64,000 bases of DNA, taken from contig JASEHM010000001.1 of the NCBI GenBank assembly GCA_030018895.1, positions 2,199 to 66,198 on the forward strand, in the 5' to 3' direction. Under the pieces are notes generated by a model, which was given only the letters and a program-made list of their open reading frames with translations, had not been told where the DNA came from and ran no database searches. Made by a program: the position numbers and the translations under genes. Positions 24,001-48,000 of this stretch are shown in pieces. The first letter of the stretch is position 1. The number at the start of each line of letters is the position of its first letter. The stretch is from Candidatus Omnitrophota bacterium (GTDB lineage: Bacteria; Omnitrophota; Gorgyraeia; Gygaellales; Profunditerraquicolaceae).

Positions 24001-27000
24001 GAGGCAATCAAAAAATTATATGATAATAAAGAGGGGTTATTCGCAGTTTTGGTTTCTATGCAAAAAGGGGAGAGATGGCAGATAATGAAGAGTTTTGGAA
24101 CACATATTGATTTCCGTGAATTCGTGGATAATCCTAATCTTAAGGTTTCTGTATATGAATATCCGGCTTTAGGTGAGAGAGGCAATGAATTTGAAAGAGG
24201 GAGAAAATTAAATGCAGCAGAGGTTCGTGAGATTGAAAAAGACGGCATTCCTAAGATGGTTTTTGTCAAAGGCCAGGATGAGCAAGGCAAAGAATTTGAA
24301 TATCTTTTAATGACAGGTATTAATGCGGCTTTAGCAGTAAAGGAAATAAAGGAATCCTATGTTTTTAGCCGGAACTTGTTATTAAAGGCAACTAAGATAT
24401 TAAGTATGAATAATCCTGCAGAACAATTTGAGGCAATTAAAAAGAGCGGGTTATCGATTCTTAATATGCCCTCTAAGGTTTCTTCTCGCGCGTTTATGGC
24501 CGTAGAGGCAGAAAAGGATCAATACGGTAATTATAAAGGCATCAGGCGTTTTTATACTGAGGATGAAATGCATGCAAAGAGTAATCCGCAAGAAGGCGAA
24601 AGCATGGTTCTTTATGAGGGAAGAAATAAGGCGGGTGTTGCCAGGGCTTATGTTTATGAAGGGAGTAGCGGAAAATTAAGGCATAAACTTGTGGCTGGCC
24701 AGGCTGATGTAACTGTGTTAGTTGTAGACGGTACATTCAAGGATAAGCCGCAATTAGGCAATCAGATATTATTTGGCCGTAATCAAGCTGAATATAATGT
24801 GGCTTTAGCAGGTATGGGGCTTATTTTAAGCCAGTATCAGGAGAAAAATATCAGCTTGGCGCAGGAAAAAATCAAAAAGGATAAAACACTAGAGGGTGTT
24901 TTGGCAATAACTAATATCGTAGGCGGCGCATATGGCTGGGCACCTGCAAACATAGTAACTGGCGCAGGCAGGTTCCTGTATAATCTTTTTGTCAGCCGTG
25001 AATATCAGCCTCAGGCGCCAACAGTCTTAGAGCTTCAGGAATTAGTGGGAAATTATCTTAAGGAAAATTATCCTCAGGAAGATATCCAGGGTTTCTTAGG
25101 TAAGGTTAATGAGAAGGAAATTGAAGGGCTCCTGAGGTATGCTCAAGGCCAGGAGAATTTTGCTAAATACCAGTTATTTTTCAGCCTCCTGGCAGATGCA
25201 GCAAAGGCCGCAGAACTTAGCCGTTCAGGAATCCTTAAAGATATCTTTGCTAATCCGTATTTCTCTTTACCTGGGGCAAGTGTAGATGTCAAGAATGTTA
25301 TTGCTTCTGTTGTAGGCGAGAAATCAGTTATCCTGGGCAAAGGATCAAGTCTAAAAGACCTTTCAAGAGGCATAGGCGAGAATTCAAGCTGGATGCAATT
25401 CTTTGGCATAGAAGTAGATGCTGCTGCCTTTATAAATACCTTAAGCGATTTGGCAGGCAGGGATGTCAGCCAGAGGCCGCTTCCTTATCGGCCCAGCCTG
25501 TCTTCTTTGGCTGCTTATGAAATCAGGGCTTTTGGTTTTCCGTTTTTAATATTTGCCAAAGAGAAGATGCTGGAAAAATATGGCCAGGCATTTGAACAGG
25601 CATACGCGTTTAAGGTTAATGCGGGTTTTCCGGATAAATATGAGAGCTATACTATGGATCAACTTGATGGCTTAGTTGAGCAAAGAATAGTAGCGCCTGT
25701 GGGTTATATCAAGGTTCCTGGACCAGACGGGATAGAGCGTGCTTTGCTGCCGGTTTTTGCGCATAAAGACGGCGGCATTATTGTATATGGAGAAGAGGCT
25801 TATAAGGAACAATCTGAAAAGATGAAACGGGCTTTAGAGAGATTTGATCGTTATGCAAAAGGCCTGGACCAGGGTATGGTAATTACTAAAATTGAAAAAT
25901 CCATTCAGCCGATGTCCTTAGAAAAACGCGAACCGCAGATTAGTTTAGATGTCAAAGATAAGGAGCAGGCAATAAACTTACTAAAGTTGTTTTTAGAATT
26001 AAGGGATTTAGAGAGTGAAAAGAATATAACTTCCGAGGATAAGCAGAGGTTGAATGAAATAAAGGTAAAATTAGGCAATAAAAAACTTATTGATTATGAT
26101 ACGGAATTTTTTAGCAATTTCCGTTATCAGGATGAAGAAGGAAATGAAATAAGGGTAAGCATTATCTATTCCCTTCAAGAGTCAATCAGGGATCAGGAAA
26201 GGGCGAAAGAGAATCTAGAAGTGATAAACAATATTGGCAGAATGTTTAAAGAAGATGGCGGTGTTCTGCTTAATCAGGCTATAGTAAACAGTAGGGGTGA
26301 GTTAAAAATCGGCCCGCTTTTAAGAGACAGCCAGGATAAGATATCAGGCGTAAACATCGGCAAGGAGAGTTTAGAAGGGATTTTAGCTAAGATAGCTGAA
26401 TTGCCTAATAAAGAACAGGCGCAGATTCAATTTAATAATTTTAATCGGTTTATTCTTAATTTAAAAATAGGCGGCAAAGAGGAAAAGGTTTTTGTAACAG
26501 CAGTATTTCCTTTAGATAAAGAGATACGAAGCAGGTCTATTAATCCCCACAGCGGCAAAGAAGAGGTTAATATTTATAAAGAAGGTTTAAAGAGATATAC
26601 CATAGATAGGACGCGTATTACAGCCTATTTGTATAATCAATACCGTATAGAGGCTGAAACTAAACTATTTAAGAATCCTTTAGGAGTTAATTGGCAGGAG
26701 AAGGTATTAAAAGAGAATATTCCTATTGAGCCGTTAATAGAAAATCAATTAAGCATTGGCCGGACAGTAACTACAGAGTATTGGCTTAGAGATTTAGGCC
26801 TTGCGAATATTAATCCTGATGCTCCGATAATTGCTAAATTATCCGGTAATTTTAAAATCGGAGAATTTAGCAAGGATATTTATGGCCTATATTTTTATCC
26901 AACAGAGAAAATAGACGGCCGCTATATTACTAAGACAAGGTTTAATGACTATAGCATTATTAGATCTGCTATAGCATTAGACAATAATGGCAGTATACTC

Positions 27001-30000
27001 AATCCTGTTCCTGGCAAGCTAAGATTTATCTTTACCTCAACTATCCCTATAGATGTATTAAAAACCCTCTGGAATCTAAAGCCCTATGGATATAAAACCC
27101 CGGTGCAAAGACTTGATGTGATTAAGGATTTATCTAAGAATATTATTTTTGACAATGCCAATTACGGAAGAAAGGCAGAAGAATCCTATGCAGATTATTT
27201 TGATGGCACAAGGACGTTTAAGGTAAAGGTTAAATATGGATATCATGAGGATTTTGCATCTGGGCTTATACCCTGTATTAGCCGTATGCATAGTGTTGAT
27301 ACCGGCGAATTCTTAGCTGAGGTTTTAACTATCGGCTATAATCCTCTGACTCGCTACCTTATAGGCAGAGAAAGAGATTATAAAGGCAAAGTTACTATAA
27401 AAGAATTTGATTACCGCTGGGAGGCGCCAGTTAAGGCTAAGAGCGAGGATGGAAAGTGGGCTACTAAGTTTGCCCATAACAGAGAAGAGACTTACACTGA
27501 GGCGATCACTTATTATAATGGGATTGCAGTGATTCCTTCTGTTTTAAATTATAAAGACGGCCGCTGGGAAAAGGATGATCAGCTCTTTCATTGGGGAAAA
27601 GATGGAATTAAGGTTCCATTAATTAAAAAGAGCCTGCTAAGCTCTTATGGAAAATTGATTTGGGAGGAGAGTTGTTTTAAAGACGGTATATTCCGCAGAT
27701 ATAATCCGGGATATGATGCAAGCGGAAAAGAATTTGCCGGCAAAGGCTTTAAATTTGATACGCAAAAAAAAGATTGGGTGAATGAGCTTGATTATTTTAA
27801 TTATCGCTATAATCATGGAGAAGTTAGCATGGAGTGCATGGAATTGCACAATAGAAATAAAACCGATACCCTTGTTTTTGATGCGCAAGGCCGGGTAAAG
27901 GGAGAAATAATAACTCTTTATATATTAGAGAGTGGAAGGCTTATCCCTAATTGGGAATTCAAAGAGGAGGATAAGGATAAAGTTATTGGGACTGCTTTTA
28001 TAGAGGTGTCTTATATCTATGATGGCTCTATCCTAAATTGTCCGCTTATTGCTGATAGAGGCAAAACAGTAGTTTATGGCAAGATAAACGGGGAAAATTT
28101 CATGATAAATTGGAGTAAATCAGAGGCCGAGGATTTTAAAGATGGCTTCCTTGCCTTGAAATTGGAAGATCTTTTGTGGGGAAAAACCTGGTTTGAAACA
28201 ATGGACCTTTTAACCCGTAACAGAATCCATAAGGCCTGGTTTAAGCTTCCGGGAGGAATTAAGGTAGAAACAAGCTATTTTTATGAAACTAAATCTGTGC
28301 CAGGCGCTAAAAGGGATCTGGCTTTTTATGATAAAGCCTCAAAATCTGAAACCGAGGTTATTTTCTCTGATGGCACAAAACAGGAATTTTACGATTTAAA
28401 TGGCTTGCCCACTACTACATTTAACTCTTCAAAGGCCATAGATTATAACCCTAAGACAGGAAATTTAACTGCGCAGCTCATTGATCATGCTGGCGGCTAT
28501 ACTGATCCTTTAGTTCATCAGGAGATAAAGAATAACCGCGACCAAGTAGAAAAAATTATAAGAGGGAGCTTAAAAAAGAATAAATTTATTCCTGAGGAAA
28601 AAGAGGTTCAAGAATATAAAGGTATTCCGGGATTAGTTAATATACCCACTCTTAATCACGCAACACCCGTAAGCCCGTACCCATTTCCTAATGATACCTT
28701 ACAAAAAGTAGAAAGTAAATCCTGGGTCATAGGTGATGACGGTAAAAAGGTTGATATCTTGAATCCAAAAGCGCTTGAGCGGATAATTGATTTTCAAGGA
28801 AGGATCAGGTATCAGAAAGAAGATACATATAAAGTCTTTGATGAAGGCAAGTGGATAGAAAATACTTTTCGCTCTCAGGTGGTTAAAAACAAATACGGTA
28901 ACCCCGAAGAAATCTCATTTTTAGATGAAAATAAAAATATCATGTCTACACTTTATCTTTTCTATGAATATAGTAAGGATAAAATAGGCCAGTTAAATAG
29001 AGCCCAGTGGAGCAGGGTGGTAGTATTTGATGGAAAACGCCAATATATCTTTGCCGCTGCTAATTGTACGCAATTAGACAGAAAATCAGGAGAGCTTTAT
29101 TTTAAGGTAAAGAAAGGGTTGGAACTAAAAAACATAATAAAAGATGGCCAAAAAAGAATAGCTCATATTTCTTCAACGGGTGATTTATTAATTTGCCGAA
29201 ATGGCCTAACCTATGAAGATTTAGCAAAGCTGCATAATAACCTGGTTAACTTCTTTACAGTAACAGCCTATGATGAGGTTCAAAACAATCGCGGACAGCC
29301 AATAATCATAAAAAGCGGCCACTCTAAGATAAACAAACAAACCGGTTTTGCTGAAGGCGATCCTTGCTGGATTGATTTCTCACTTTATCCAAAATATCCC
29401 TATATCCCATTTAGCCTGGAAAGCTACACCTATAGATGGAATAAAACCAAAGGGAATGACTCTACAAACTACGCTCAACCTACCTGGTGGGCAAGGAATG
29501 TTGCTTCTCTCCGGAGAGATATTGATAGGTGGCAGGATAGTGATTGGGTTGCAATGACTTATGATTTAAGCACTGAGAAGGATGCTGAGGGTAGCTATTA
29601 TATGAAGTATAAAGTTATAGACCACAGATACGGCCCGTCTTTAATTTATAAAGCTAATTTATTCGATGGTAGAAAATTGTTTGAAGAATACAAAGGCAAA
29701 CCTGGAGAATCAGATAATATAAGGGTATATTATTCTGAAAATGAAATTTCTAAATATACTTTGGGTATTAACAAAGATGGCACATCGGAAATCTGGCGGT
29801 ATTATAAATTGGCTGCAATGAGAAACGATGGCCATAAATACCTAATTTTTGAAGAAATTGATCCTTTACGCGATAAGCACTCTTGGTACTATTGGCTGAG
29901 CAAGCAGATTTATCCGGAGTTGAGCTGGAGAGTAATTCGCGATGGTGTCTTTTTCGCACGCATCGATAAATGGGACTACTCTACAGAAGAATATAAGGGA

Positions 30001-33000
30001 AGCAGAAATCTTAACGATGATGTGGCGAATAGTATGCTATTTAGGTTATTTTCTGCCCATAGAGAACGTGTTAAAGAAAGTAGGGAAATTAGAGATGTGG
30101 CTTTAGATCAAAATAATTTTGTAATGATTGATAGTGGTAATAAGATGCAGTGGGATTTAGATAAGGCATGGCATAATCGCATAGACAGATTTTTGCATTC
30201 TAATGCTATAGTGGGATTGGTAATTGGTTTCATTGTTTGCTGGGTGTTTATTATGTGGTGGATATTGAAGTTATTTGTGCCTAAGGTGAATATTAACTCA
30301 GCAGATAAAGAAGAGCTGACCCAAGTATTTTCTCCACATGATGCTGGCAATATTATTTCTCTCAGAACAAAACTCGATGTTATAAAGAATATATCAGAGC
30401 TTGAAGGAGAGGACAGAGGAATACCTATATTTAGAGATATAACAGTCAAGAAAATAAAGAGAAAAATTCGTTTTGATGAAAAAACAGGAGGTATCACCAA
30501 CATAGCAATAAACGATCTCAGGAATACTACGCTTAAGACACTGTCAAATACTATTCTTGAGCCTGTGGCGGGGTATATCAACGATCTTATTGAACAGAAA
30601 TTTATTACTTTAGGAGAAGTAGAAAATATAATACATGATTTAGCGCGTAAACTATTTGAAAATGTTCTTCCTGTAGAGTTGGTAAGGGCGAAATTATTAA
30701 GCAAGATATTTATGCGCGCTTATTGGGATGATAATTTACTTTTTAAGAATAGTGTAAGAGAAAGTTTGCGAGTATCAATAGAGGGTATCTTCCGGAGAGT
30801 TGGCATGCCGATGTCGAAAGAGTCTGTCGACCTATACATTAATGAAATCATCCAGGAATTTTCCACGCAACGTCCTGGAGAATTTGTGTACCAAAATGAC
30901 AGAAGTAAATATAAAGACAGTAATAAACATGAAAGCGGTGATAATCTGTCGCTCAATACGCATCTTTGGGTTTTTGATCCAAAAATGGGCTTCCAACTGA
31001 TTTCATTGGAGGATTTTGTACTGCAATATAAAGTCGTCTATACCATGGTTCCTTTCTTCGGAGGCCATACGCCTGTAGTTCGTTGGTTCGCAATAGAGAT
31101 AAAGAAGCTCTTGGAAAGCAAGAGAGATAGTGAGGTAAAACCGTTCCTACAAGCACATCGTAAGTTTTGGTATCAGGTGCTAAAAGACCAATTAGATAAT
31201 AAATGGGAAAATATGCGCGATGACCGTAGAAAAGGGCCTGCGTATAAAGATGAAAAGACAAAGCAATGGCAGTATCTTTTAACGTGGGAAGAGTTCAATG
31301 ACCTATTCCGCTATTTATTAGAAGAAGATGATTATGGCGCGCCACTTGCTTTTAAGGATACCGCTGAGTTTTTGGCATACAAGAACAATGTTATGGAAAA
31401 TGTAATTAATAAGATTTACGTTCCTGTACAAACAAACGCCTCCAGTCCCTTTACAGATAGTATGTCTAAAGAAGAAATACAGGATTTAGGGAGCACTTAT
31501 CTCAAGTCATTTATCCTTTACTCAAGAGAGAATTTAGGAATACCTCGTTATGATAGAGATACATATAAAGAGAATGATAATCAAAGCAGATTATGGAATA
31601 AGATTAGGCAATATATTCCTATTGTTAGAAGATGGAGGAGTCCTGAACGAGGCGAATTAGGAGTGTGGGCATTTGTTGCGAGTAAGCTCCTATTTAATAA
31701 GAAATTCTGGAGCCAGGACAAACGAGATGAAAAAAGAAAATTAGGCGTCGAGAAAAATGAGGCGATTAGCAAGATTCCTGTTTGGTTAAGAATAGTTTTG
31801 TATATGGTATTATCGGCACTAAGTATTTGGTTAATCCCTTCATCTTTAAATATTGTTGGATTATCTTTAACCTTGCCCTGGTGGCTGAAGGGCATATTTT
31901 TTATTGCAATTGTCGCTACGGCAAGGCTTTTCTTGGGAGAGCGCACTTTAAAATCCCGCCGGTCATCCTTATTCTGGGGTGCAGTAAGTATAGTAACGCT
32001 CGGATTTATTGTTTATATCATTGGATTTGTTGCGGTCAATTGGATTTTTATGCCAATTCCTTTTGAAATTAACCTGTTCAGCTTAACTCTTTATCTGCCT
32101 TGGTGGACAAAGGCCGTTTTAGTTGCTCTATCAGTCTCACCTTTTCTGGATATGTTTTTTCTTACCTATTTCTCTATAGCAAACTTAATGAAGGCAGGTG
32201 TACGATGGTACATAGGTTGGAAATATAAGTTTTATAAAGTTAGGACATTTGAACAAGCAATGCAAATTTTACCAGAGATTCTAAAGAATAAAGAGAATTG
32301 GAATAAGTTTAAAGATATTGTGGATGATTATTATGAAATATATCGTCTGACAACAGCCGAACACGGTATGTTTATTAAGGTTTTAGAGGATATTCAGACG
32401 AATGCTTCTAGAAAGGATAACGAACCCAAAGAAATTAAAAAATTAAGGATTAAAATTACAGAACAGGAAATCAAAGATTTTGTAAATAAGAAATTCCGTA
32501 AAGATATGTCTTCCGAACCAAGAGACCTTTCTGAGTTGCGTTCTTTTGTAATACAGATAAGTGGTTTTGGCGAAGCTCCGTATTTCCTTTTCACGGATAT
32601 TAATAAGCTAGATGCAGGCAAGATTCAGACCCAACTGGGGATGTTTGCTAAATCTTATCCTGACCAGTGGCAGGTGTTTGTGGAGAGATTGGAAGAAGAG
32701 AAAAATATCATTAATGAAAAACAAAAGCAAGAATTATTGAAACTAATTGAGAATCCCGATTATGTCCTTAAGTTGTTTAATGACGCAGATTCACAAAAAG
32801 CAAGAGAAAAAATTGAAGAGTGGTTTAACCTGAATATACAGTCAGGTTATGCCAATATAAAATCAGCACTTAAATTAAAAGAAGTATACAAACATTATAT
32901 AAAGAAATTTGTTCCTGGCTTGGATGACGTAAAGGTTGAAGCTTTAGTAAATGATTATCTCCAGTTTGTTTTTATTTATGATCAATGGGCGCAAGAGATA

Positions 33001-36000
33001 GAGATTATCCTAAGAAGAGAATTAAACAAGCCAGAATTGAATTTAGACGAATTCATAAAATCTTTATCCGAGGAGAAGGCGAAGGTAGTGTTAAATACAA
33101 TAACTACCATATGTTACGACCGCAATGCAAATGATGAAAAGAAGAAATCCGATACTATTATGCACAAGTATTTCCTTCTAGCTTTAGTGAAGAATAAGGT
33201 AACTATCTCAAAAGGAGGTATTTTCAAGCCGGATAATTTACCTATTTCTGAAAAAACCAATATTCATGACGCAAAATATACAAGCTGGATGAGCTTTATG
33301 TCCAGAATGAGAGGAGAAATCAATTTTTCTCTTGACTGGGACCACATTCATCCATTCAGCGAACTTTGGTTTATACCTAATGCAGGAATGGAGTTTCTTT
33401 TTGATGACTGTCTCGTAGGCGGTCCTTACAATAGCGATATTTTTTCTCGCCCGATTTCTACGACTGCCAATGTTTTTGGTTTGATGGAAGAAGGCTGGCT
33501 TGACGGAGAGCAACCAGTTAAGGACGAGATTGATTCAATTCTTTTCTATGGGAAAGGTTTTCAAAAAGTAGCAGCTTTGAGGAACTTTGAGATGCTGGCT
33601 GCAGATGATAGCGTGCAGGAAGATGCTTTTGGTTTTGCAAAAGCCCTAATGCAAGGAGGCAGGTCAAGGGCATTTCACTTCTTTAAAATATTAAAAGGTT
33701 TAAGTAATCTTGTATTGGGAGCATTAATTCCATTGAAAAAATGGAGCGGTGATTCTTCAGAAGCAGTAAGATTACCAGCAGGCATTAAATTCTTTTTGAG
33801 CCCTAATATTTCCTGGACGAAAAAATTAGGGAATCTCATCAACTGGGGATTCTATATGAAAAAGCCCTCTGTAATGAGGGTAACAGTTTGGGTTATTATT
33901 CTTTATTATCTCGCTAATCTCAATCCTTGGTTTGGATTAGCTTTCTCTTTATGGTTTACTAGTATTCTTCTTGCTCAGGCAATTTCCTATGGCGGATTCT
34001 TTAAGTATACAAGTAAATTTGGAAGGATAAAAGGGGCATTGTTCTTTTTGCGGGATTTACTTACCAAGTTCTTTATCTTTTCCACTGGCATTATCCCTTC
34101 TTATGCTGATAGTGTAAAACGCGGTTTTAGCGCCTTTTGTAAGTTTATTAGGACAGGTGGCAAAGCCGGCACATTAGGCCGAACTAAAGGGAGTGAACTT
34201 TATATCTTTGGACATAAAGGAATCAGTGTAGCAGCTGCGCTGTTACTGTTTATTGCTTTTGCATCTTTTGATCCTATGAAATTTATAGTCTGGCTTCCTC
34301 AAATCGCTACAATCGTGGGCTGGTTAACGTTTATCTTCTTATTGGAACCGGTAAGTTCTAAAAAGCACGTACTTCTGAATATTGCTAATGTCGGATTAGG
34401 GTTTATATTAGGAATAGTAGATTTTGTTGCCAATATTATGACTAATTCTAAGGTTTTAAGTATCCTTACCGGCATACTATTATTATCACTTCCGGACTCT
34501 TTACCTGCCTGGATTCTTATATCTTGTATTGCTATAGCAGGTAGTATTGGCTTTGGCTTAAAATGGAGCAGGATGCTCTTTAATAAAAAAGTTTGTGAAG
34601 AGGCAAAGACTGTGCTAAAGCTGGCAAAGGATTATAAGATAAAGGGATATGCAGTTACTATACTTGAATCTTTTGTTTTGTCTACCGGATTTCATTACGC
34701 TTTAGAAGGTTATATTGAAGGAAGAATTAAAGGCTTACCTTCATTTATTATGGTATTACGTATTCTGTGGTTATCAAGAGATAAAGCACTTAACGAAAAT
34801 ATTAAAAAATCAGAGTTAGAAAATAAGCAAAAGGAAGAGGAAAAGAAGAAAGCAGAAGAGAGACAGAATGCAAAAGGCTCGTCTCCGGTAACGACTTCTT
34901 CACCTATTCCAACTCTAAATAATACTCAGCCAGATCAAATAATAAATACCGATAATGCGAACAACGAGCGCTTTGGCATTGCCAGAGAGCTTACCAAGGG
35001 CTTGGTAGCAGAATTACCCCAAGTATTAGGTAAGGTAGATATCTACGAGTTACTTAAAGCAGCTAATGGCATTCTGATTCTTGACCGTAACCGCTCACCC
35101 ACTGACATAGATGCTCATGCGGATAAAGAACGTAACTCTATTTGCGTCACTGTGCGTTCTGATGAAGACTTCCTTAATTTATCTATCCCAGAAGTAGCTA
35201 CCACCCTTATCCATGGAGCCATAGAGCTTGCCACAAAACAAGAAGCCTTAAGACGTAATATCGATTGGGAACAAATCGCATCGCTTGCCCAACAAACTGC
35301 CCTTAACTTTGCCCAGAAATATCAAGAAGTCATTACCCACAGATATGACCGCTTGCTGATGAGACAAGATATGCAGGTTGCCTTTAAAAATGGCTGGCGC
35401 GTAAAGAAGATTTACCAGACTGCCTTTAACCATGTTCAGGCTGATATGTATGCCTCCCAGGTTAATCCTGAAGATTATCCTCAAGACACTGAAGTCATCC
35501 CTGTAGCGGACCCCCCTCCTTATTATAATAAGGTAAGGGCTTTTGGTAATGGCTTAGCTAACCTGAATATAGTAAGGAACTTTGTAGAAAGGCTAATCCA
35601 GGAATTAAAATTAGAGCCGGGAACCTATAATTTAGTAGAACTTCTGGGTAATACCTTAATTATCGGCTTGCACGGTGGCGGCCAATCAGCCAGGAATCCT
35701 AAATATACCCAGATTGGTAAATTTAATGGTTATCTGCCTATAAGGAGCTTAAACAAAGACTTACCCGCTACCCTGCAGGAAGAACTCCTGGTGCCAGCAG
35801 CGGTCTTAAGCAGAATCTATCCAGACAACTTACCCGGCTACATCAATATCTACGGAGATGCCTTAATTACCTTTAATCCAAGAGAAGTAGAAAAAATTAT
35901 TAAGGCTAATCCTGAAATGGCCCAGGGTTTGATGATCTTCTTAAGAAAAGTTCCTGCTCGCGAAGCTTCTACTTGGGGTGCAGGTGCCGTAGATGAATCC

Positions 36001-39000
36001 TTGCGCATTCACCAATTTGTAGAAAAGGCCTTCAAGAGCACAGGTGAAATATCCAAAGGTATTATCCATGTGAATGAAGAGGGCTTTGTAATAGACACAG
36101 ATTTAGATAAAGCCAAACAACTTCTTGCCAATAAATACAGGCTCTTAGTAGAAGACCAGTATATTCTTATGAACACTGCCTTTGCCATATTAGGCCCACT
36201 TGCCCTTGTGCGCTGGGCGATTCTTTCAGGCATTGACATAGATACAGAAGGTAATTTTATCATTACAGAAAAAGCCAAGGCTTCTTACAACACAAAGAGC
36301 TTTTATGACTTAGTCCTAACCTATGGCTCAAGTGTAGATACCTTTGGTGATTTAGTGCCTCCTATGGGCGAAGACTTAAATATCATTGACTTTATCTTCT
36401 CTGTTGGCACCAAACAGCTTGAAGAGGCCAAGAAGAAAATCCACGCTGAAGCCTTACCTATCATAGAAGACATGGAAGGTAGGCTACAGGATTTACGCCG
36501 AGACTTCAAAGAAGATAGTTTCTCCTTGAAAAAATTAGAGGACAGTTTGAATAGCCTCTTAGAATCTCTTAAGAAAAGAATCCAAGAGGTTCAGGATGAG
36601 AAGACTGTTTCTGTGTTAAATGTCTGTGTATCTAGCATCTCTCAAATCCTGCTGCGTCAGATGCTCATTGAGGTTTTACGCCGCGGTGGCGCTGGCTCAA
36701 AAGCATGGGCTATACCCATAGAGGGTGAGTGGTTGGATACTGGAAGAACCATCGAGGAAGCACAAATCATTCTGGCCGAGGGAAAAGCCAACAGGCAGAT
36801 AGCCTCGGTGTTTGACTTTGAGAAGTCCATTGCCGCAAAGACCAATGTAGCAAGCCACTCTTTTGTCAGCATCATTGAGGCAGAACCTAAATCTCAAGTT
36901 GCCACAGATTCCATTCAGATTGCCTCTTATCTGAAAGGCAAAATTCATATGGACTCCAGATCTCAGGTGCACCTTGTAGACTGGCAAGGCGATTTACACC
37001 TCAACTCAGACGTGGTGATGTCTGAGGCAACCACCAGATATCAAGAGAAAGAATGGGTCGTGCACCTGCTCTGGGGATTACAGGATGGAGAGACCAATAA
37101 AATCAAGACCCACATAGGCCGTTCCTTAGAGGAATGGTTCACTGAGTTAAGTATTGACATAGATAAGATTTGGCCTCCTGCAACTGCGCATCTCTTAAAC
37201 ACTGCCAGAATCTTCCCTGGCTTAAGTCAGCAGATTTTAGAGCAAGGAAAGCAAATAGATGACTTGGATAGAGAGCTCTTTGACTCTATGAATGATATCT
37301 GGGGCTTCTTACAAGGACATACTGCCCCAGTTCCTGTTGCCTGGCTGAAAGCTTTAGAAGCAGAACGCCTCTTCTCTATGACTGATGCCTACAGTAAACC
37401 CGCCACTGAACTGATGCAACAGAGAAGAGAAGGATTGATGAGGAAGAAGAAAGCAGAAGAGAGACAGAATGCAAAAGGCTCGTCTCCGGTAACGACTTCT
37501 TCACCTATTCCAACTCTAAATAATACTCAGCCAGATCAAATAATAAATACCGATAATGCGAACAACGAGCGCTTTGGCATTGCCAGAGAGCTTACCAAGG
37601 GCTTGGTAGCAGAATTACCCCAAGTATTAGGTAAGGTAGATATCTACGAGTTACTTAAAGCAGCTAATGGCATTCTGATTCTTGACCGTAACCGCTCACC
37701 CACTGACATAGATGCTCATGCGGATAAAGAACGTAACTCTATTTGCGTCACTGTGCGTTCTGATGAAGACTTCCTTAATTTATCTATCCCAGAAGTAGCT
37801 ACCACCCTTATCCATGGAGCCATAGAGCTTGCCACAAAACAAGAAGCCTTAAGACGTAATATCGATTGGGAACAAATCGCATCGCTTGCCCAACAAACTG
37901 CCCTTAACTTTGCCCAGAAATATCAAGAAGTCATTACCCACAGATATGACCGCTTGCTGATGAGACAAGATATGCAGGTTGCCTTTAAAAATGGCTGGCG
38001 CGTAAAGAAGATTTACCAGACTGCCTTTAACCATGTTCAGGCTGATATGTATGCCTCCCAGGTTAATCCTGAAGATTATCCTCAAGACACTGAAGTCATC
38101 CCTGTAGCGGACCCCCCTCCTTATTATAATAAGGTAAGGGCTTTTGGTAATGGCTTAGCTAACCTGAATATAGTAAGGAACTTTGTAGAAAGGCTAATCC
38201 AGGAATTAAAATTAGAGCCGGGAACCTATAATTTAGTAGAACTTCTGGGTAATACCTTAATTATCGGCTTGCACGGTGGCGGCCAATCAGCCAGGAATCC
38301 TAAATATACCCAGATTGGTAAATTTAATGGTTATCTGCCTATAAGGAGCTTAAACAAAGACTTACCCGCTACCCTGCAGGAAGAACTCCTGGTGCCAGCA
38401 GCGGTCTTAAGCAGAATCTATCCAGACAACTTACCCGGCTACATCAATATCTACGGAGATGCCTTAATTACCTTTAATCCAAGAGAAGTAGAAAAAATTA
38501 TTAAGGCTAATCCTGAAATGGCCCAGGGTTTGATGATCTTCTTAAGAAAAGTTCCTGCTCGCGAAGCTTCTACTTGGGGTGCAGGTGCCGTAGATGAATC
38601 CTTGCGCATTCACCAATTTGTAGAAAAGGCCTTCAAGAGCACAGGTGAAATATCCAAAGGTATTATCCATGTGAATGAAGAGGGCTTTGTAATAGACACA
38701 GATTTAGATAAAGCCAAACAACTTCTTGCCAATAAATACAGGCTCTTAGTAGAAGACCAGTATATTCTTATGAACACTGCCTTTGCCATATTAGGCCCAC
38801 TTGCCCTTGTGCGCTGGGCGATTCTTTCAGGCATTGACATAGATACAGAAGGTAATTTTATCATTACAGAAAAAGCCAAGGCTTCTTACAACACAAAGAG
38901 CTTTTATGACTTAGTCCTAACCTATGGCTCAAGTGTAGATACCTTTGGTGATTTAGTGCCTCCTATGGGCGAAGACTTAAATATCATTGACTTTATCTTC

Positions 39001-42000
39001 TCTGTTGGCACCAAACAGCTTGAAGAGGCCAAGAAGAAAATCCACGCTGAAGCCTTACCTATCATAGAAGACATGGAAGGTAGGCTACAGGATTTACGCC
39101 GAGACTTCAAAGAAGATAGTTTCTCCTTGAAAAAATTAGAGGACAGTTTGAATAGCCTCTTAGAATCTCTTAAGAAAAGAATCCAAGAGGTTCAGGATGA
39201 GAAGACTGTTTCTGTGTTAAATGTCTGTGTATCTAGCATCTCTCAAATCCTGCTGCGTCAGATGCTCATTGAGGTTTTACGCCGCGGTGGCGCTGGCTCA
39301 AAAGCATGGGCTATACCCATAGAGGGTGAGTGGTTGGATACTGGAAGAACCATCGAGGAAGCACAAATCATTCTGGCCGAGGGAAAAGCCAACAGGCAGA
39401 TAGCCTCGGTGTTTGACTTTGAGAAGTCCATTGCCGCAAAGACCAATGTAGCAAGCCACTCTTTTGTCAGCATCATTGAGGCAGAACCTAAATCTCAAGT
39501 TGCCACAGATTCCATTCAGATTGCCTCTTATCTGAAAGGCAAAATTCATATGGACTCCAGATCTCAGGTGCACCTTGTAGACTGGCAAGGCGATTTACAC
39601 CTCAACTCAGACGTGGTGATGTCTGAGGCAACCACCAGATATCAAGAGAAAGAATGGGTCGTGCACCTGCTCTGGGGATTACAGGATGGAGAGACCAATA
39701 AAATCAAGACCCACATAGGCCGTTCCTTAGAGGAATGGTTCACTGAGTTAAGTATTGACATAGATAAGATTTGGCCTCCTGCAACTGCGCATCTCTTAAA
39801 CACTGCCAGAATCTTCCCTGGCTTAAGTCAGCAGATTTTAGAGCAAGGAAAGCAAATAGATGACTTGGATAGAGAGCTCTTTGACTCTATGAATGATATC
39901 TGGGGCTTCTTACAAGGACATACTGCCCCAGTTCCTGTTGCCTGGCTGAAAGCTTTAGAAGCAGAACGCCTCTTCTCTATGACTGATGCCTACAGTAAAC
40001 CCGCCACTGAACTGATGCAACAGAGAAGAGAAGGATTGATGAGGAAGTTGAAGAAAACCTCATCCCCTATTTCCACCCCTATTTCTAACTTCTCAGATAT
40101 AAAGACATTAATAAAAGCTTGTAGAAATGCAAATCCACAGGCAAAAATATTTGTTCCAGAGAAATCGAGTTTTGGAAAACTCTCTTTAAAAGAAATTCTC
40201 AGTTTAACAACCTCCAGTTCCCTGATACTTTCCTTAGAATCTAGACTAGTAGCAGCCATCGCCAAGAAGAATTCTTTTATCCAAGGCTCCAGCCCGCTTT
40301 CAGAAGTTATCCTGCCTGGTTTAACGTGGGGATTTTATGTTTTTGAGATTCGCGAATCAAAGGTAGGTGGAATTGCCGATGTCGCTGAAGGCCTTCCGGA
40401 AGCAATAGTAAGGGCTAAGACGCTTGATGGAAAGCCTCATACAGTTTATCGGGTGACCCCGTATTATAGAGATATATTCACTATGACTAATAAAATTCGT
40501 TTGGAAGACCAGAAATTAGTAGCTCAACTATGCATTCCTTATCAGCACCAAATAATTACTGTGGATGTATATAAAAGATTGCATGTTTCTAATATGGTTG
40601 ATTATCTGCTTGTAAACGAAATATTTAGCCGCCCATATGATAAATCAGATACCAAGAATCAAACTGAATCTGAAGAAGAGGTAGTAATATTTAATATTGT
40701 TTCAGCAATACTCATTATTTTAGGGGAAACTCAACCTGATGTGCTGCTTCTATCAGATTGGCAGACAGGTTTACTGCTTTCCTATTTAGAAGAAAGTGTT
40801 TCAGAGCCAACCGCGATATTAAGGAAGGTTGTTGTTAAGACAGAGAAAGGCAATGTTTCTGGTGAAGAATTAGTAAACGAATTTGTACGTTTAAAAGTAT
40901 ATGAATGGATGATACCGATTTGTTGGATTAATAATGAAGCTTATAGAGGGCAATTTCCTGTAAAAAATAGAGCGGACTTTAAGGCAAAAACAGGATTAGT
41001 TTCTCAGCATGGCTTTGAGTATGCAAGATGGATTACCCCAACAAGAGAAAGCGAACAATTTATGATTATGCTTAAGTTAGGGATAGAAAGCACTAATCGT
41101 TGTGGAGGAAAAATAGTCACAGTTAGCCAGGCTTATGCCAGAGAAATTATGGGTATAAACCTTAAACCAGAAAATCATCCTGGGATGCTTCACGGTATTT
41201 TAAAAAGAACAGAGGTTACAGGAATACTAAACGGCACTCCTAAAGAATGGAAATACATTACGGATTTAAAACAGAAGAGAGAGGCGAAGCGGTTGTTACA
41301 AGAAATATTAGAGTTAGATAAGTTTGCCTCTGCAATGTGCGGAGGGGAAATAGAACGATTAAAGCGAAAAAATTTTTGCTGTTTGGGAAAACGCTTGCGT
41401 TTTAGTTATAGTTATCTTAGCTCCTTGCCTTCTGGCTCCTTATTATACCTCGCCGTGGCTGGTGGGATACAAGGCGTTGTTGGTTCAAGCCAGAGGGCAG
41501 GGAGTTTTTTGATAAAGGAGTTTATTAATAAGGTAAAAAAATTATTACCACAAAAAGGAGGCGCAGGATGTATAGACTCAGAGAGGTGCAGATTAGGTCT
41601 TTTGAGGTGTTGCAGGAAAACAAGGGAATTTTTGTTCTGGCAGGGTTTCCGGGTTGGCATTCTACTTATGATTTCCTTATTCAGTCTAATGGAGAAGTTA
41701 AGGGAAGAACACACGATAATTGGCAGCTCCTTACAGATGAGACAGCTGAGATTATTAAAGGGAAGTTTAAAGAGGTACTTACAAGGAATTGATTTAGCGT
41801 TTGAAAGCAGCTCGGCGAGGTTGACGCAGGCACAGAAAAGAGTTACTAACTCGCCGTTAAGGTTGGAGAAAGAAACAGAAAAGATAAACAAAAATTTGAA
41901 TGAGCTTACGAAAAATGCAGTGGCATTATCAGACCAAAAAAAATTTTCAATTGAGGAGGATATACTTCTTATTGAGACTAACCTTAAGGAAATAGGGCGG

Positions 42001-45000
42001 TTGGGGTCTTTAGCAGAAGATTCACAAAAAATAGAAAATGACATTGATTTTATTCAATTACTCAATGAGGTAATAGATGATTTTAAAAAGAGGTTTCCTG
42101 ATATTACTTTTGTGGTTGAGAATAAGGCAGATGAAATTAAATTACCTGGTATTCGAAAAATAATAGAACACATCTTAAGGGAAATTTTCCAGAACAGTGT
42201 TAAGCATGAAGGTAAACAGATTAATATAGAGATTTCAAGAACAGAAGGCAAAATAGAGATTAGTATAGAGATTAGCATAATTGATAATGGTGAGGGTATT
42301 TCTAAAGAGAAACTGGAGAGGATTCGTAAAGTTTTGGCGCAGGCAGATACAAAGCAAAGCGAAAAAGAGAGTAGGGGCAGAGGCCTTTCTTATTTAAATA
42401 AACTTCTTTATGAGTACACTTTAATTGAAGAAAACCTAGAAATATATTCTGAAGGTGAAGGCAAAGGCACAAGGGTAAGATTCTTTTTACCTTTAGCTCA
42501 AGAAAAATACAGGGTGCCAGATATTCATAATCGGATAAAATTTATTATCCATGAGATAAACAATATTCTATGTACAGTGCAAAAAGCTTTTTTAAATGAA
42601 AAAAATACTGTGTTGGCAGATGCAACCAAAGGCACAATTTTAGTAGTGGATGATGAAGAAAACATTTGCGTCATATTACAAATGTGTTTCGAACAAGTTG
42701 GTTATACGGTTGTTACTGCTGCCACAGTAGAACAAGGATTGGAGACTTTCAAAGAAAGGCAGAAAGAAATAGGATTAGTTTTAATAGATTATACATTACC
42801 TGGTGGAGATGGATTACAATTAACAGGGAAGATTAAAGAGGTTTCTAAAGATATTCCTATATTTATTATGACAGGAAGGAGTCTACGCGAAGAAGATATT
42901 TTAAACTCAGGAGCAAAAGAAGTAATTCCTAAGCCTTTTAAATTTGAGGAATTACTAAAAAAGGTAGAAGAAGCGGTAACAGTTCAGCGTTCAGAAGTAA
43001 ATCAGGGTGTCATTCTCGCCCCCGTTTTCACGGGGGTAAACTCCAGCGGGAATCCAAAGATGGTTGACAGAATGGATGCCAGTTTTCACGGGTATGACAA
43101 AAACGGGAGGCGAGAACTTCCGGAAGCTGAACTGTTACAAGAAGCGGTATCTTCAGCAGTAGAGATTGTTAAAATGTTGTCATTGCGAGCCCGCCACACT
43201 TTGTGGCGAGGCGAAGCAATCACTTTTTTGAGATTGCTTCTTGCTTCGGTTTCGCCTCGCAATTGCAATGACGCGAAAATGGATTTTTTCAGCGTTTTCC
43301 TAGAATATCACTTGATACAACAAGCCTTAAAGGGTTTTTTCGGTCGACTTAATTCAGACTTTTCTAAACAACTTTTAAGCTCTCGCCAAACAATTCCTTT
43401 AGCAGGTTCTCCTTTTACAGAATTAGTTTCTAGTTCTTTGTTTGTTTTTAGTCTAACAGAGGCTATTAAGTTGATTCAGATTTTTGTTAAGGAGAAGGAA
43501 GGGGCTGAGATTGGAGAGAAGATAGGGAGCCTTAGTTCTGAAGAACTAAACGTCCTTACGGAAGCGATTATTGCTTGGAAAGAGTTGGAAGAGATTGAAG
43601 TAGGAGAGAAAGAAAAGAAAAGATTCATTGATATCTATTCTTCTAATTGCCAGTTCAGTAGTTTTGTTGGTTTTTTAAAAGATGCTATGCAGTCAAGGTT
43701 AGTAGAGCAGAGGGCAGAAAGAGAAAGTATTCTTTATGAAATTGTCGAGGAAATTGGGAAATTAGAGGGGGTTAGCCCGGATAAAATAGAGGAAGAGTTC
43801 GCTAGATTTAAGATGAAGGCATTAGAGGAGCTTCTTAAGGCATGGGGGTATAGCTATGAGATAGATGAGGAAGATAACTTAAGCCTTATTTGTTCAACAG
43901 ATGGACTAAAGGAGTCGAGTTATAAATTAACACCGCGAAAGCCTAATGACCCGGAAAAGAGTTTTCTTTGGGATTTTCTTAAAAAGTATTGGGAGCAGAA
44001 AAATACCCTTTCTGGGCAAAAGAAATTATTGGAAGGATTTAAGAAAAAATTGCCTATAGAGATAGTAGAAGTAATTATCTGGGATGGCGTTTTTCGGGGG
44101 CTATGGATTAAAGATAGATTCGCCTTTCTTAAGAAATTTTATCCGGAAAAAGTAGATAATGGAGTTTTAGATCAACTTGCCTCTGGCCATATCTTCTCAA
44201 GATTACAAAATATTTGCCTTCCTCAAAATTTAAAAGACGACTTAACTTGTTATCAAGGAGTTTTGCCTAAAGAGCTTATTTTTCTCCTTCCTCTCCCGGG
44301 AAAAGGAAAATATATTTATATGTTACATAACTGGGCTCAGGCCAGTATTGAAAATAAGCAATTTATCCCTCTAATTAAAGAAAAAAAGATTTTTTTCTAT
44401 TTGTTTAGGGCAATAGATGTCATTATTAGAGAAAAGGAAAAGATAAAACAAAGGATAACTGATAGCCGTACAGGTTTGTATAATGCCTGGTATTTAAAAG
44501 AAGAGCTGGAGAGACAAATAGGTTTGGCCAAAAGGCATGATAATCCCCTGGCGATATTAATGCTGGACATAGATCATTTTAAGAATTTTAATGATACATA
44601 TGGCCATTTAATAGGCGATATGGTTTTAAAGTATGTTGCTGAGGTGTTTAAGAGGATGGCAAGGAAAACGGATATTGTTTGCCGTTATGGCGGGGAAGAA
44701 TTTATGATTATCCTGTCTAACGCGGATTTAGAAGGAGGGGTGGTTGCCGCAGAGAGAATTAGGGAGGCGGTGAAAGAAATGAAAATTAAAAATATTAATG
44801 AAAAAATAACTATAAGCATTGGCGCAGCTTCTTTAGATAAGAGTTTAAGAAGTATCTCTGACTCTGAACAATGCCAAAAGGCATTTATTAAAGAGGCTGA
44901 TCAGGCGGTTTATATAGCCAAGGCAAAGGGGAGAAACCGAACAGAATTTACTATAAAACAGGTAATCCCTTATTTAGAGCCGGAAGAAGAATTATTTCCT

Positions 45001-48000
45001 GAGAAGTCTGTTTCTCTTTTGTATAAGGTGAAGGCGGAGTTCAAAGGAGGCAAGGAAGGGGAGAAATATACAGCATTGGAAAGGTGCTATATTATTAAGC
45101 GGCCTAAGCTGACTGTGCGCGATAATCGAGGCGAAAGGCTTTTGATAGAGAAGGTTGATGATATGCTTTTAGAAGAATTTGCTTATTGGGTTAGCCAAAA
45201 AGCAGGGTTGGGCTGGAAAAAAGATGGAAGGATTTTTCCTGTTGCCGAGGTGATTCAGAATGAAGAAATTTTAGAGAAATGCTGGATAGGAGCAGGGAAT
45301 GAGGCGGCGGTAATCATTGAGGAAATACCGGATATTAAAAAAAAAGAAATAATAGTGGATTCTCTTCTGAAAAGGAACCTTACTAAAGAAGAAAAGGAAG
45401 ATATCTGTGATATTATTATTCTTCATGCCTATTTGGCTAGCCAGGATTTAGAAACCCACCTTATATTATTTGATGAGGAAAATAGGATTGGCACCCTTGA
45501 TTTGGGAGCAGGGACATTGTTTCATTCGCGAAATCTTAATTCTATTTTGGAAGAACTTTTGAGTTACGTATCTCCTTTTATAAAAAAAGGGATAATAACA
45601 GCGAACGGCCTTGAAAAGTCTATTAAAAAGATAGAGCAGAATATTACTCGCAAGGATTTAGAAGAATTTTTTCAGGTGCTTAGGCAGAGGCGTTTACTTG
45701 ATAAAGGCTACGAAAAAAAAGCAGTAAAAGAATTATGGGAGCGGATTGCAAAACTACAGGGTTGCCTAGAATGGTATTTTGGCCTTAAGGAAACCTCAAA
45801 AGAGTATATTTGGAATATTGAAAGGCTATCAGAGAAAGAAAATTTTGAGCCACTTTTTTTAAAGCAATATATCATAAGGGCGATAGAGAGAATGGAGAGA
45901 GAAGGCCTTCTTAAAAGAAGCTTTAAAGAGTTAGAGATAGAAAATTTATCTGAGGAAATAACAAAAGTAGAGATTAGGTATCTTTCTTTTGAAGAAGATA
46001 TTTTGATTAATAGATTAAAATTTAAACTTATTTTTGGTGATGCGGTAGAGCATCAAGCAGAATTAGTCTTAACCCTGTATGTGAATAAGGGTTTTGGTGT
46101 ATTAAAAGAGAGCTTAGATATTTCTTATATGGCTGAGGAAATAAAAAAAGAGGTTTCTTTAAAAGAACCTCATGACCGCTGGCTCTGGGAGCCTGTTGGG
46201 CATTATCTTTGCTTAACCTTATCTGCCGCTTCAGCAGTGGTTTTTATAAATAGACTTATTACACAAAGATTTGGCAGGAAAGTAGGCTCTTGTCTTTTGT
46301 CTGTTAATTCGCCAATAAGAGGGCCCAATAATATATCAACGGATGAGCGTAAAAAATTTTCGGGAATTCCTAAAGAAGAAAAAATTAAGCTTATCAAAGA
46401 GTGTTATGGCAATTGTCGGGAGATTGCTAAAGCTGTTAAAGAATTGGGTGTTGAGATAACTTTTCAAGGGGTTGCAAGTTATATTCAGGGGGAGGAAGAG
46501 TTAAAACAGATTTGTATTGAGGCAAGAAAAAATCGTCCTTCAAGAGACATTAGAAAGCTTATTTTGAAACGTTGGAAGGATGAGAAATCAGGCTCAAGAA
46601 AGACTTTTATTGCGGCAAGAAAAAATCGTCTTTTAGGAAAATCTAAAGCACCTATTTTGGAATCTTTGGATAGTGTAATTGCAGAATGGATAAAGAATGA
46701 TTTCCAAAAAACTCCAGAGTTTTTTATTAGCGATAGAAATGAAGAAGATCTTCTTGCTCTCCCTGATTTGTTAATAAAGTGTTTTAAAACTGCTCAGACG
46801 CGACGCCAACGCGATAATTTAGCTAAGGCTGTTGAGTATGCCAGGTGCGTTTTGCGCTTACCTTCTTGTGATTGGCCAAATTACTATGGTTTAATAAAGA
46901 CAAAAGAAGACGCAGAAGGAGACTTTCTTGGCTTATTACAGGTAGTTTTAACTACTCAAGATGAAGAGGAGCGAATAACTGCAAGGATTCGCCTTGTTGA
47001 TATCATTGAGATTATTCCAGAAAAGTATAAAATTTTCTTAGTGGGCTATGAATTTGCAACGGATCCTAAAATTAAGGATAGGTATAGCGAACTAATAAAA
47101 TTTGGTATTGAACCATTTATATATTCGTCCCGCCTTAAGGCGGGGGGCTTTAGTATTTTGCCCCAAGAAACCTCTCTTATGGCGAGGGAGAGCTTCATAA
47201 TTGCTAACCAGGATGTTGAAAACTACCAAGACCTATTTAAGCGGATAGCCGGATTGTTTATATCTTTGCCTTACTTTAAGATGGGGCAGAGTTTCATTGG
47301 GGCTTCGCAGACTCAAAAAAATAATCTTCTAAGTAGCCTTAATTCTATTAGCATATATGTGCCTAAACATATTGCCAGTCTAGGAAATCTTGATCTCAGT
47401 CTCAAATGCTTTTATTGTGTTGAAACTGTTTCTCAGAGAAATACATTATGTTTTGTGATTAAGAATATTATCCGCGTGATTGGGCCTGGAAATATTCATT
47501 CTGATTGTATTGAAAAAATAAAAGAGCTTCTCTGGGATAATTGGCCTCAAGGAAAGACGATTTTCTTTGCTTCAGAAGCAGTGCTTAGGGAGAAATTTGA
47601 CTTATTGAAACTAGGAAGGGCAGGCTCTGCAATAAGCATGCCCAATAGGGCTATTCTTTGTTTAATTTTGCTGCTCTTGTCATTGCCAAATCGCAGTTTT
47701 GGCCAGATTGGGACATCTGCAGAAATATCTCTAGGAACATCTCCAGGAATATCCAAGGAAATATCTGTGAGAACATTTACAGAAGCGCCCCAAGGGTATC
47801 AAGATAAATACAAAGAACCAGTAGTAAATAAGCGGCTCCAGAAAGAAATAGAGCGGGCTTTGGAGCCAAAGAATGTAAAAAGGACAGAATATGCAGCAAA
47901 TAATCCAACAAGACTAAAAAATTCAAAGTCGCTTCCTATAAATTGCGGGGCTTTGCTTAGCTGGTTTTCATCTATTATATTTGAGGGCATAGTGAGTAAT

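Follow-up and report, generated by a model that had tools for sequence, protein, structure and literature searches.

How genes of 30,000 to 150,000 codons have come to their size is a question that the literature has left open, and a survey from 2026 considers most of their repeats to be ancient. The question is raised again by a stretch of 64,000 nucleotides (nt) from a Candidatus Omnitrophota bacterium (assembly GCA_030018895.1, contig JASEHM010000001.1, forward strand, positions 2,199 to 66,198), which is referred to below as the window and is numbered from its first letter. A unit of 2601 nt occurs there twice, in exact tandem and within one very long reading frame. With zero substitutions in 2.6 kb, this locus offers a concrete and datable case of growth by whole-module duplication. 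As best overall explanation we propose a giant multi-enzyme gene with a recent module duplication and a probable prior import of that module, a combination that we regard as likely.

When the window is compared to itself shifted by 2601 nt, one unbroken run of identity appears at 34843–37446 (2604 nt), and an independent repeat search returns the same pair of copies. Tandem Repeats Finder, the longest period of which was 500, listed nothing at the unit locus. The copies have 0 mismatches over 2601 nt. They lie head to tail and in frame, with identical translations of 867 amino acids (aa), just as an earlier reading of the letters without database searches (the sequence-only reading) had claimed. 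The elements of this duplication are:

34843..37443, + strand: first copy of the unit, 2601 nt or 867 codons, made up of a linker (34843–34959), an adaptor (34960–35322) and a nucleoside diphosphate (NDP)-sugar pyrophosphorylase core (35323–37443)
37444..40044, + strand: second copy of the unit, 100% identical to the first, with linker (37444–37560), adaptor (37561–37923) and core (37924–40044)
37432..37455, + strand: duplication junction, ...GGATTGATGAGG|AAGAAGAAAGCA..., in purine-rich DNA coding for Arg, Lys and Glu
40045..40047, + strand: microhomology AAG, with which the unit begins and which recurs right past the second copy; by it the run of matches is 2604 and not 2601 nt long

The left flank passes into the first copy as ...GGAAGAGGAA|AAGAAGAAAGCAG..., and the end of the second copy passes into the right flank as ...GATTGATGAGG|AAGTTGAAGAAAA.... 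Because AAG at 40045–40047 repeats the first three bases of the unit, the range 34846–40047 given by the sequence-only reading describes the same event shifted by the 3-nt microhomology, and is an equally valid phase. Beyond these 3 nt, the repeat searches found nothing common to both breakpoints. Identical head-to-tail copies, a single new junction and a length that preserves the frame are the features by which a recent tandem duplication is recognized. The identity of 100% reaches both edges of the unit and the sequence immediately outside is unrelated; hence, a single recent duplication fits better than the conversion of an old one. The earlier proposal of a very recent duplication or gene conversion is upheld in the sense that the copies are either very recent or continuously homogenised.

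Could the tandem be an artefact of assembly? The true copy number might differ, a repeat loop might have been traversed twice by assembler or curator, or the compositional island described below might be chimeric from a co-occurring strain. Perfect identity over 2.6 kb is what loop traversal is expected to yield, and the island borders nearly match the repeat borders. Furthermore, assemblies of giant genes are error-prone and often manually curated (West-Roberts et al., 2023), and no independent assembly of the locus is present among the searched collections. However, a false tandem would still need reads that lead from the end of the unit to its start; since the breakpoints share only 3 nt, k-mer overlap could not invent this junction, and junction reads should exist. 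The intact 64-kb frame argues for a consensus of high quality, and the independent assemblies of relatives contain near-perfect intragenic repeats of their own (loci L008 and L004, see below), as well as an older tandem pair (L005). Assemblers usually collapse perfect tandems and seldom expand them. Judging from the assembled sequence, we consider an artefact quite unlikely and the tandem duplication probably real; even so, the number of copies may have been miscounted.

The duplicated unit corresponds exactly to one module, as homology with the closest relative (locus L001) covers aa 43–866 of its 867 aa. Residues 1–39 form a Lys-rich Ser/Thr/Pro linker (KKKAEERQNAKGSSPVTTSSPIPTLNN...), residues ~40–160 (~120 aa) an adaptor domain which according to an adaptor alignment is also found ahead of related modules in other loci, and residues ~161–867 (~700 aa) an NDP-sugar pyrophosphorylase that resembles the N-terminal part of the bifunctional fucokinase/GDP-fucose pyrophosphorylases (FKP). 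The sequence-only reading had placed a flexible Ser/Thr/Pro/Lys linker at the end of each unit. Module borders do lie in linkers of this kind, but once the junction fixes the phase, it is seen that the linker (KKKAEERQNAKGSSPVTTSSPIPTLNN...) opens each unit. Another linker, of this type but with a different sequence, follows the second copy and leads to the neighbouring module, which belongs to glycosyltransferase family 5 (GT5):

40045..40344, + strand: second Ser/Thr/Pro/Lys linker (KLKKTSSPISTPIS...) with a short spacer, leading into the next (GT5) module
40345..40806, + strand: start of the GT5 module, similar to glycogen/starch synthases (PF08323, E 2.2e-16), with native codon usage (fraction of C at third codon positions, C3, of 0.097)

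The model TIGR02095 (glgA) matches this GT5 module with 76 bits, which is under its own cut-off.

The family assignment of the core follows from a profile search with the 867-aa unit, as the sequence-only reading had advised. PF07959 (fucose pyrophosphorylase) matches the single unit with 66 bits at a cut-off of 34 bits, and the pair with 119.5 bits. In the alignment of the modules, the FKP-type motifs HGGGxSxRNPxYxxxGK, YGDALxTFNP and FxEK are kept; the corresponding motifs of the window (LHGGGQSARNPKYTQIGK, YGDALITFNP and FVEK) align with HSGGDSRRxPQYSxxGK, SGDxLLxFxP and FLxK of classic FKPs. The likeness to this family hence includes a score above the gathering threshold, aligned nucleotide-binding and catalytic-loop motifs, and a C-terminal part that corresponds to the last 150 positions of the profile. 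On the other hand, identity to FKPs amounts to only ~24–37% over short stretches, the unit carries large insertions (including a coiled-coil-like stretch of ~100 aa) and it is embedded in a giant polypeptide. A profile search of the PDB returned only weak matches, namely to ADP-glucose pyrophosphorylase (GlgC, E 0.008), and no FKP structure. Identity with a bifunctional FKP was rejected: the GHMP-kinase half is lacking, as Pfam gives no match for this domain within the unit, and the NCBIfam equivalog PRK13412 scores 22.8 bits at a cut-off of 721.

By its sequence profile, the unit contains a pyrophosphorylase of the fucose-pyrophosphorylase/FKP-N-terminal family with a C-terminal beta-helix-like part. 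Such a module is predicted to synthetize an NDP-sugar from a nucleoside triphosphate and a sugar-1-phosphate at the cytoplasmic side, next to the GT5 glycosyltransferase module, and a supply of activated sugar to this neighbour appears a reasonable inference from the domain order. Two copies in cis would double the capacity, and could also provide an oligomerisation partner inside the same polypeptide.

Within the adaptor, the motif H-E-[AS]-[IV]-E-L of the relatives L001, L002, P0001 and P0002 reads H-G-A-I-E-L in the window (35122–35139, unit aa 94–99, and again at +2601), and H-A-A-I-E-L in the module L008b. If the glutamate is catalytic in the relatives, the copies in the window may have lost it. 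A role of the adaptor as an HE-motif protease for polyprotein processing was discarded, since HG takes the place of HE in the window and profiles lend the idea no support.

In which genes do homologues of this module occur? A word-indexed database of 5.8 billion clusters contained 4 matches. Searched exhaustively with HMMER, 1.84 billion representatives yielded 32 matches at E <= 1e-3, the best at 47% identity; the strong ones are nearly all long multi-enzyme fragments, and the classic bifunctional FKPs are distant matches. Scans of the GTDB species genomes and of JGI metagenomes provided nine loci (L001–L009), and in 9 of 9 the module is part of a frame that stays open over the full length retrieved (up to 23 kb). 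Eight of these loci derive from metagenome-assembled genomes (MAGs) labelled Omnitrophota, and L004 from one labelled Planctomycetia. The closest relative, L001, was found in a MAG from Lac Pavin (JAPLLU010000087.1), and is 65% identical in aa and 68.5% in nt. In the word-indexed database, the 559-aa flank upstream of the unit, used as a protein query for close relatives or an allele predating import, had no match.

Position within the gene is informed by a block located ahead of the unit:

29059..34791, + strand: upstream block (aa 9687–11597), conserved with L005, L006 and L009 (collinear BLASTP matches, 33–65% identity per segment) and ending in ~5 transmembrane-like segments

This block of ~1,900 aa is collinear in the three loci at 43–46% identity overall, and a homologous module is located within 0.3–1.2 thousand aa downstream of it in each of them. 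Hence, this type of module belongs at this position of the gene. The region after the conserved transmembrane block differs in every relative examined.

A neighbour-joining tree of the modules (100 bootstraps) displays a clade I, composed of the module of the window, L001, L002 and L008b (bootstrap 100%), in which the window and L001 are sisters (100%). These two share an insertion of ~17 aa that is absent from the other modules. All modules of the syntenic loci L005, L006 and L009 are found in a second clade (clade II). Locus L008 holds both clades, II followed by I. The position of the unit in clade I appears at odds with its synteny; as L008 contains both clades, differential loss of ancient paralogues may also account for it.

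Duplications are found in the relatives too. L005 contains a tandem pair of its own, made of the homologous module. Its two copies are 81.5% identical and sisters at 100% bootstrap, and the pair therefore represents a separate and older duplication; the same locus contains a repeat with a period of 1,988 aa and 77–98% identity. In L008, a 1744-nt repeat of 99.83% identity is present on both sides of the clade I module (8095–9838 vs 12436–14179), and in L004 perfect 422-nt repeats flank the module (9687–10108 vs 12141–12562). As further observations, older tandem module pairs are found in L005 at aa 2401–4154 and 4024–7323. The flanking B-type modules of L008 are 99.83% identical, and the adjoining A-type modules are 44% identical and belong to different clades. 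This pattern in L008 is not easily accounted for unless modules were replaced or conversion was targeted.

Many enzyme modules of L003, L004, L005, L006, L008 and L009 are preceded by a recurrent inter-module domain of ~130 aa (...AKPRxGFTxxDVVxEA...RLRxxIxAGHLRAGPMxxAFGAN...LIATNDNPNP..IHENNGGTHxEN...). A 22-kb locus may have as many as 5 of them, and in L004 copies can be 100% identical. The domain carries no Pfam name. The window contains two weaker copies, at aa 7167–7295 and 7591–7713 (nt 21499–21885 and 22771–23139). Homology of the unit adaptor to this domain was rejected (hhalign probability 0.5%).

The second line of evidence is the composition of the unit. The sequence-only reading had noticed an excess of C-ending codons and had found it consistent with a horizontally captured cassette. 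C3 is 0.263 in the unit and 0.128 in the rest of the gene, and GC content at third codon positions (GC3) is 0.437 as compared to 0.328, so that the comparison of GC3 inside and outside the unit, which that reading had called for, reveals unequal values. No other 867-codon segment of the de-duplicated gene deviates as strongly in codon usage as the unit (G 209–222 vs 59.6 ± 13.8, z about 10.8), and the excess of C at third positions amounts to z = 5.6 (elsewhere 0.125 ± 0.023); the noticed excess is thereby confirmed. GCC, ACC, ATC, GAC, CAC and GGC are each enriched ~2–3-fold (GCC 0.49 vs 0.15, ATC 0.37 vs 0.12, CAC 0.56 vs 0.19), and G-ending codons of the four-fold families are depleted (GGG 0.00 vs 0.19, CGG 0.00 vs 0.11, ACG 0.02 vs 0.13). 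A maximum-likelihood change-point model with two boundaries places the start of the bias at 34948 (support 34915–34969), in agreement with the "about 34,960" of the sequence-only reading, and is compatible with an end at the end of the unit:

34948..40044, + strand: compositional island with C-rich and G-poor third positions, comprising the folded parts of both copies and dipping at the linker of the second copy (37444–37560)

Thus, composition is atypical and its boundaries are sharp, as is looked for in a laterally acquired segment. By parts of the unit, C3 is 0.05 in the linker, 0.28 in the adaptor and 0.26 in the core.

Elsewhere in the window, a second island at ~61200–64000 (aa 20759–21293), over the second GT5/GT1 module, has GC3 0.48, C3 0.20 and a fraction of G at third positions (G3) of 0.28. 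With a codon-usage G of 141 it is the next outlier after the unit, and on the basis of its composition it may be another exchanged module.

One may ask whether the bias is a matter of selection on translation (speed or accuracy, or co-translational folding), an explanation that is silent on origin. NNC codons in two-fold families, together with GCC, ACC, GGC and ATC, belong to a class that is often translationally preferred. In line with this, the unfolded linker lacks the bias, and in three different hosts the clade I modules are rich in C3. However, all other conserved enzyme domains of the gene, presumably on the same transcript, have a C3 of 0.07–0.12, and the homologous modules in L005, L009, L004 and L002 display no C3 enrichment, or the opposite. 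We consider selected codon bias very unlikely as an explanation. The simpler notion that conserved enzyme domains use better codons was rejected on the same grounds: seven other Pfam domains of the gene have native C3 (M23 0.11, GT5 0.10, HATPase 0.12, Response_reg 0.07, GGDEF 0.12, Sigma70 0.12 and PEP-utilizers 0.10), and folded enzyme domains of this gene therefore do not share the bias in general. That the donor was a gene of this genome on the opposite replication strand also appears unlikely, as total GC3 differs by 0.11, which is beyond G/C skew.

If neither selection nor strand accounts for the island, from where might the module have come? In relative synonymous codon usage, the unit correlates better with the entire L001 locus (r 0.85) and the entire L008 locus (r 0.84) than with its own gene (r 0.745); among the fetched loci, these are the two of ~20 kb with clade I modules. 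Membership in clade I, as opposed to clade II of the syntenic loci, together with this codon usage closer to L001 and L008, favours the import of a variant from another giant gene. The notion of a horizontally captured cassette is thereby retained in one part and revised in another: codon usage is indeed unlike that of the rest of the gene, but the module is not foreign to such genes, as the family is almost confined to giant genes of Omnitrophota. Replacement or insertion of a module from another Omnitrophota giant gene would fit these sequence data better than capture from outside such genes or from outside the phylum, and we give it roughly an even chance.

Several points weigh against this reading, or against parts of it. 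First, the collections searched hold no relative above 65% aa identity, and thus no allele from before duplication or import, and no donor. Signatures of a donor or of mobility are lacking: the nearest relative stands at 65% aa and 68.5% nt identity, flanking repeats are absent, and repeat, tRNA and Rfam searches around the island found no flanking inverted or direct repeats, no target-site duplications and no mobility genes. Second, in the relatives 10 of 12 instances of the module have a GC3 above that of the remaining locus, the entire pyrophosphorylase cluster of L008 has a C3 of 0.25–0.32 as compared to 0.11–0.18 in its flanks, and the modules of L005 and L009 are G3-rich (0.41–0.42 vs 0.25–0.31). 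A process tied to the module, or linked to recombination, could hence make an island without import. Synonymous sites are saturated at 48–65% aa identity, and the C-richness shared by clade I is therefore not a passive inheritance. Third, the junction and the copy number (two, more, or one) are known from assembled sequence, not from reads. Finally, the AF2 model of the unit, computed from a 5-sequence alignment, has a pLDDT of 45.8 and is too poor for a fold search, so that fold and substrate are read from sequence profiles only.

Part of these observations would be expected if no import had taken place, and an older, vertically inherited duplication had been kept identical by gene conversion, with GC-biased conversion raising GC3 and C3. 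The elevated GC3 in most instances and the C3-rich island formed by the whole repeated cluster of L008 would agree with this, in L008 and L004 near-identical repeats stand beside diverged modules, as if conversion were still going on, and the ancestral gene may have held both clades, as L008 does, followed by differential loss. Against this stands the identity of 100% up to both edges of the unit, since conversion tracts rarely coincide exactly with the original endpoints of a duplication. Furthermore, the bias is C-rich and G-poor and not plainly GC-rich, with L005 and L009 running towards G, the L004 module has a GC3 below that of its own gene, and the codon usage of the unit is nearer to L001 and L008 than to its own gene. 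An origin by conversion without import hence appears unlikely as a whole, but GC-biased conversion stays a serious contender as the source of the composition. More generally, the data may point to either frequent exchange of modules, or a recombination-linked process (e.g. GC-biased conversion) acting on a repeat-prone region.

Returning to import followed by duplication, we hypothesize the following course of events. An imported variant would have replaced, or joined, the native module by recombination before the duplication, a step to which we assign about equal odds of having occurred or not, and its third-position composition would not yet have drifted to that of the host gene. Then, very recently, a head-to-tail duplication would have affected the whole module, comprising the 39-aa linker, the ~120-aa adaptor and the ~700-aa pyrophosphorylase. 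Both breakpoints are situated in purine-rich linker DNA coding for Lys, Glu and Arg, where microhomology-mediated illegitimate recombination or template switching may have been the mechanism, and only in-frame, linker-to-linker products would keep a frame of more than 64 kb open. In a wider and more tentative view, giant genes may evolve like modular megasynthases, with modules bounded by linkers and adaptors being exchanged between lineages and then amplified in tandem; the window would illustrate both steps at a stage when the sequence has not yet decayed, and the sugar-nucleotide-forming region after the transmembrane block may be a hot-spot of such turnover.

Which kind of gene has received this module? 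The window is a single open frame:

1..64000, + strand: whole open reading frame (ORF), a fragment of a multi-enzyme giant gene, as judged from the count of stop codons and the Pfam domains

Frame 1 of the + strand contains 21,333 codons with zero stops and is open at both ends of the window, as compared to 726–2205 stops in each of the other five frames. With at least 21,333 codons the fragment may be set beside the length of at least 30,000 aa by which giant genes of Omnitrophota are delimited by West-Roberts et al. Along the ORF, Pfam recognizes Helicase_C, Peptidase_M23, two Fucose_pyrophosphorylase domains (the duplicated unit), Glyco_transf_5, HATPase_c, Response_reg, GGDEF, Sigma70 regions 2 to 4, PEP-utilizers and a second GT5/GT1 pair. 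Searches of the 64-kb window for tRNA genes and Rfam families gave no match. Kyte-Doolittle analysis displays 36 hydrophobic transmembrane-like segments, which are clustered; one cluster of ~5 segments (aa 11400–11510, nt 34198–34530) lies directly upstream of the unit. The duplicated unit is thus located between a transmembrane block and the glycogen-synthase-like GT5 module. The window is part of a giant, membrane-anchored, multi-enzyme Omnitrophota gene of the "Archaeovorin" type, the enzyme modules of which are parted by low-complexity linkers.

This assignment is supported by comparison with published genes. The Archaeovorin domain set (West-Roberts et al., 2023; bioRxiv 10.1101/2023.11.21.568195) matches that of the window, where a single frame of more than 64 kb combines two GT5 domains, GT1, HATPase_c, a response regulator, GGDEF and PPDK/PEP-utilising domains, interspersed with transmembrane clusters. 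No HEAT repeats, which among Archaeovorin domains are the most frequent, came up in the window; they are present in L001. Omnitrophota origin is indicated by the 8 of 9 module loci in MAGs of this phylum, and by the three loci that share the ~1,900-aa block. The role of duplication and of domain incorporation was left open by West-Roberts et al. (2023). A preprint from 2026 (10.64898/2026.06.07.730766) describes strict tandems of identical nucleotide sequence in 17% of the long genes, to which the window bears likeness. The preprint judges these strict tandems to be short and the repeat architecture not to stem from recent expansion, whereas the window contains a full module of 867 codons with zero substitutions. 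In term searches, "horizontal" and "recombination" were absent from both texts, "lateral" from that of 2023, and "codon usage" and "GC3" from that of 2026.

By way of analogy, and without a claim of homology, the locus may also be compared to the non-ribosomal peptide and polyketide synthases. There, linker-bounded catalytic modules are tandem-duplicated and swapped by recombination, resulting in mosaic genes with incongruence at the level of modules. The modules of the window differ in being metabolic enzymes of a free-standing type and not domains linked by carrier proteins, and substrate channelling is without evidence. Taken together, tandems in giant genes are of a documented kind, and a new type of system is not revealed; the sequence suggests as new elements a complete module at zero divergence, plus a suggestive but unproven hint of exchange. 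If confirmed, the locus would provide a before-and-after system in which to study copy-number polymorphism, linkers as recombination-permissive joints, and tandem modules as intramolecular oligomers.

Beyond the unit, the ORF displays other features. The linkers are marked by the motif SSP[VIL], with 15 occurrences in the window as compared to 3 expected, clustered in linkers at module borders (aa 11627–13430 and 16325–17731; nt ~34879–40290 and 48973–53193). These sites include both unit linkers, the linker after the second copy and the linker right before the GT5 domain. By its sequence context the motif may be a linker signature, or a site of processing or modification.

In the middle of the ORF, Sigma-70 regions 2, 3 and 4 (PF04542, PF04539 and PF04545) are encoded in frame at 53722–54480, on the same polypeptide as a histidine-kinase ATPase, a receiver and a GGDEF domain. 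To find a sigma factor inside a protein of more than 21,000 aa is unusual, and one may ask whether it is set free by proteolysis.

Nested palindromes that resemble repetitive extragenic palindromes (REP) or miniature inverted-repeat transposable elements (MITE) are located inside the ORF at 15106–15218, 16396–16465, 19324–19402, 21900–22072 and 43178–43255, with the frame being kept. They have the form CGTCATTGCGAG...GAAGCAATCTC-loop-GAGATTGCTTC...CTCGCAATGACA. The 13-mer GCTCGCAATGACG occurs 14 times at no more than 2 mismatches (0.5 expected), often as inverted pairs, and stretches of 81 and 91 nt fold with z = -7.2 and -6.6. At 21900–22072 the half-site forms a 33-nt tandem array.

A segment of ~135–200 nt is shared at 89–96% identity by 52816–52971 and 61437–61572 (and also 54930–54973), 8.6 kb apart. 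The protein around the first two positions is only ~25% identical, reflecting an old duplication (aa 16413–17074 vs 19385–20121). The segment contains the palindrome GGAAACTGTTTCC and a TTGACA...TGAAAAT stretch, and in view of these letters possible readings are a conversion tract, an inserted element, or an element inside the gene with a regulatory or RNA function. Finally, a direct repeat of 150 nt with 90% identity is found at 23637–23786 and 42990–43139, 19.3 kb apart and in an otherwise unrelated protein context. The encoded peptides (aa 7878–7929 vs 14329–14380) are 77% identical, and the second copy adjoins a palindromic element.

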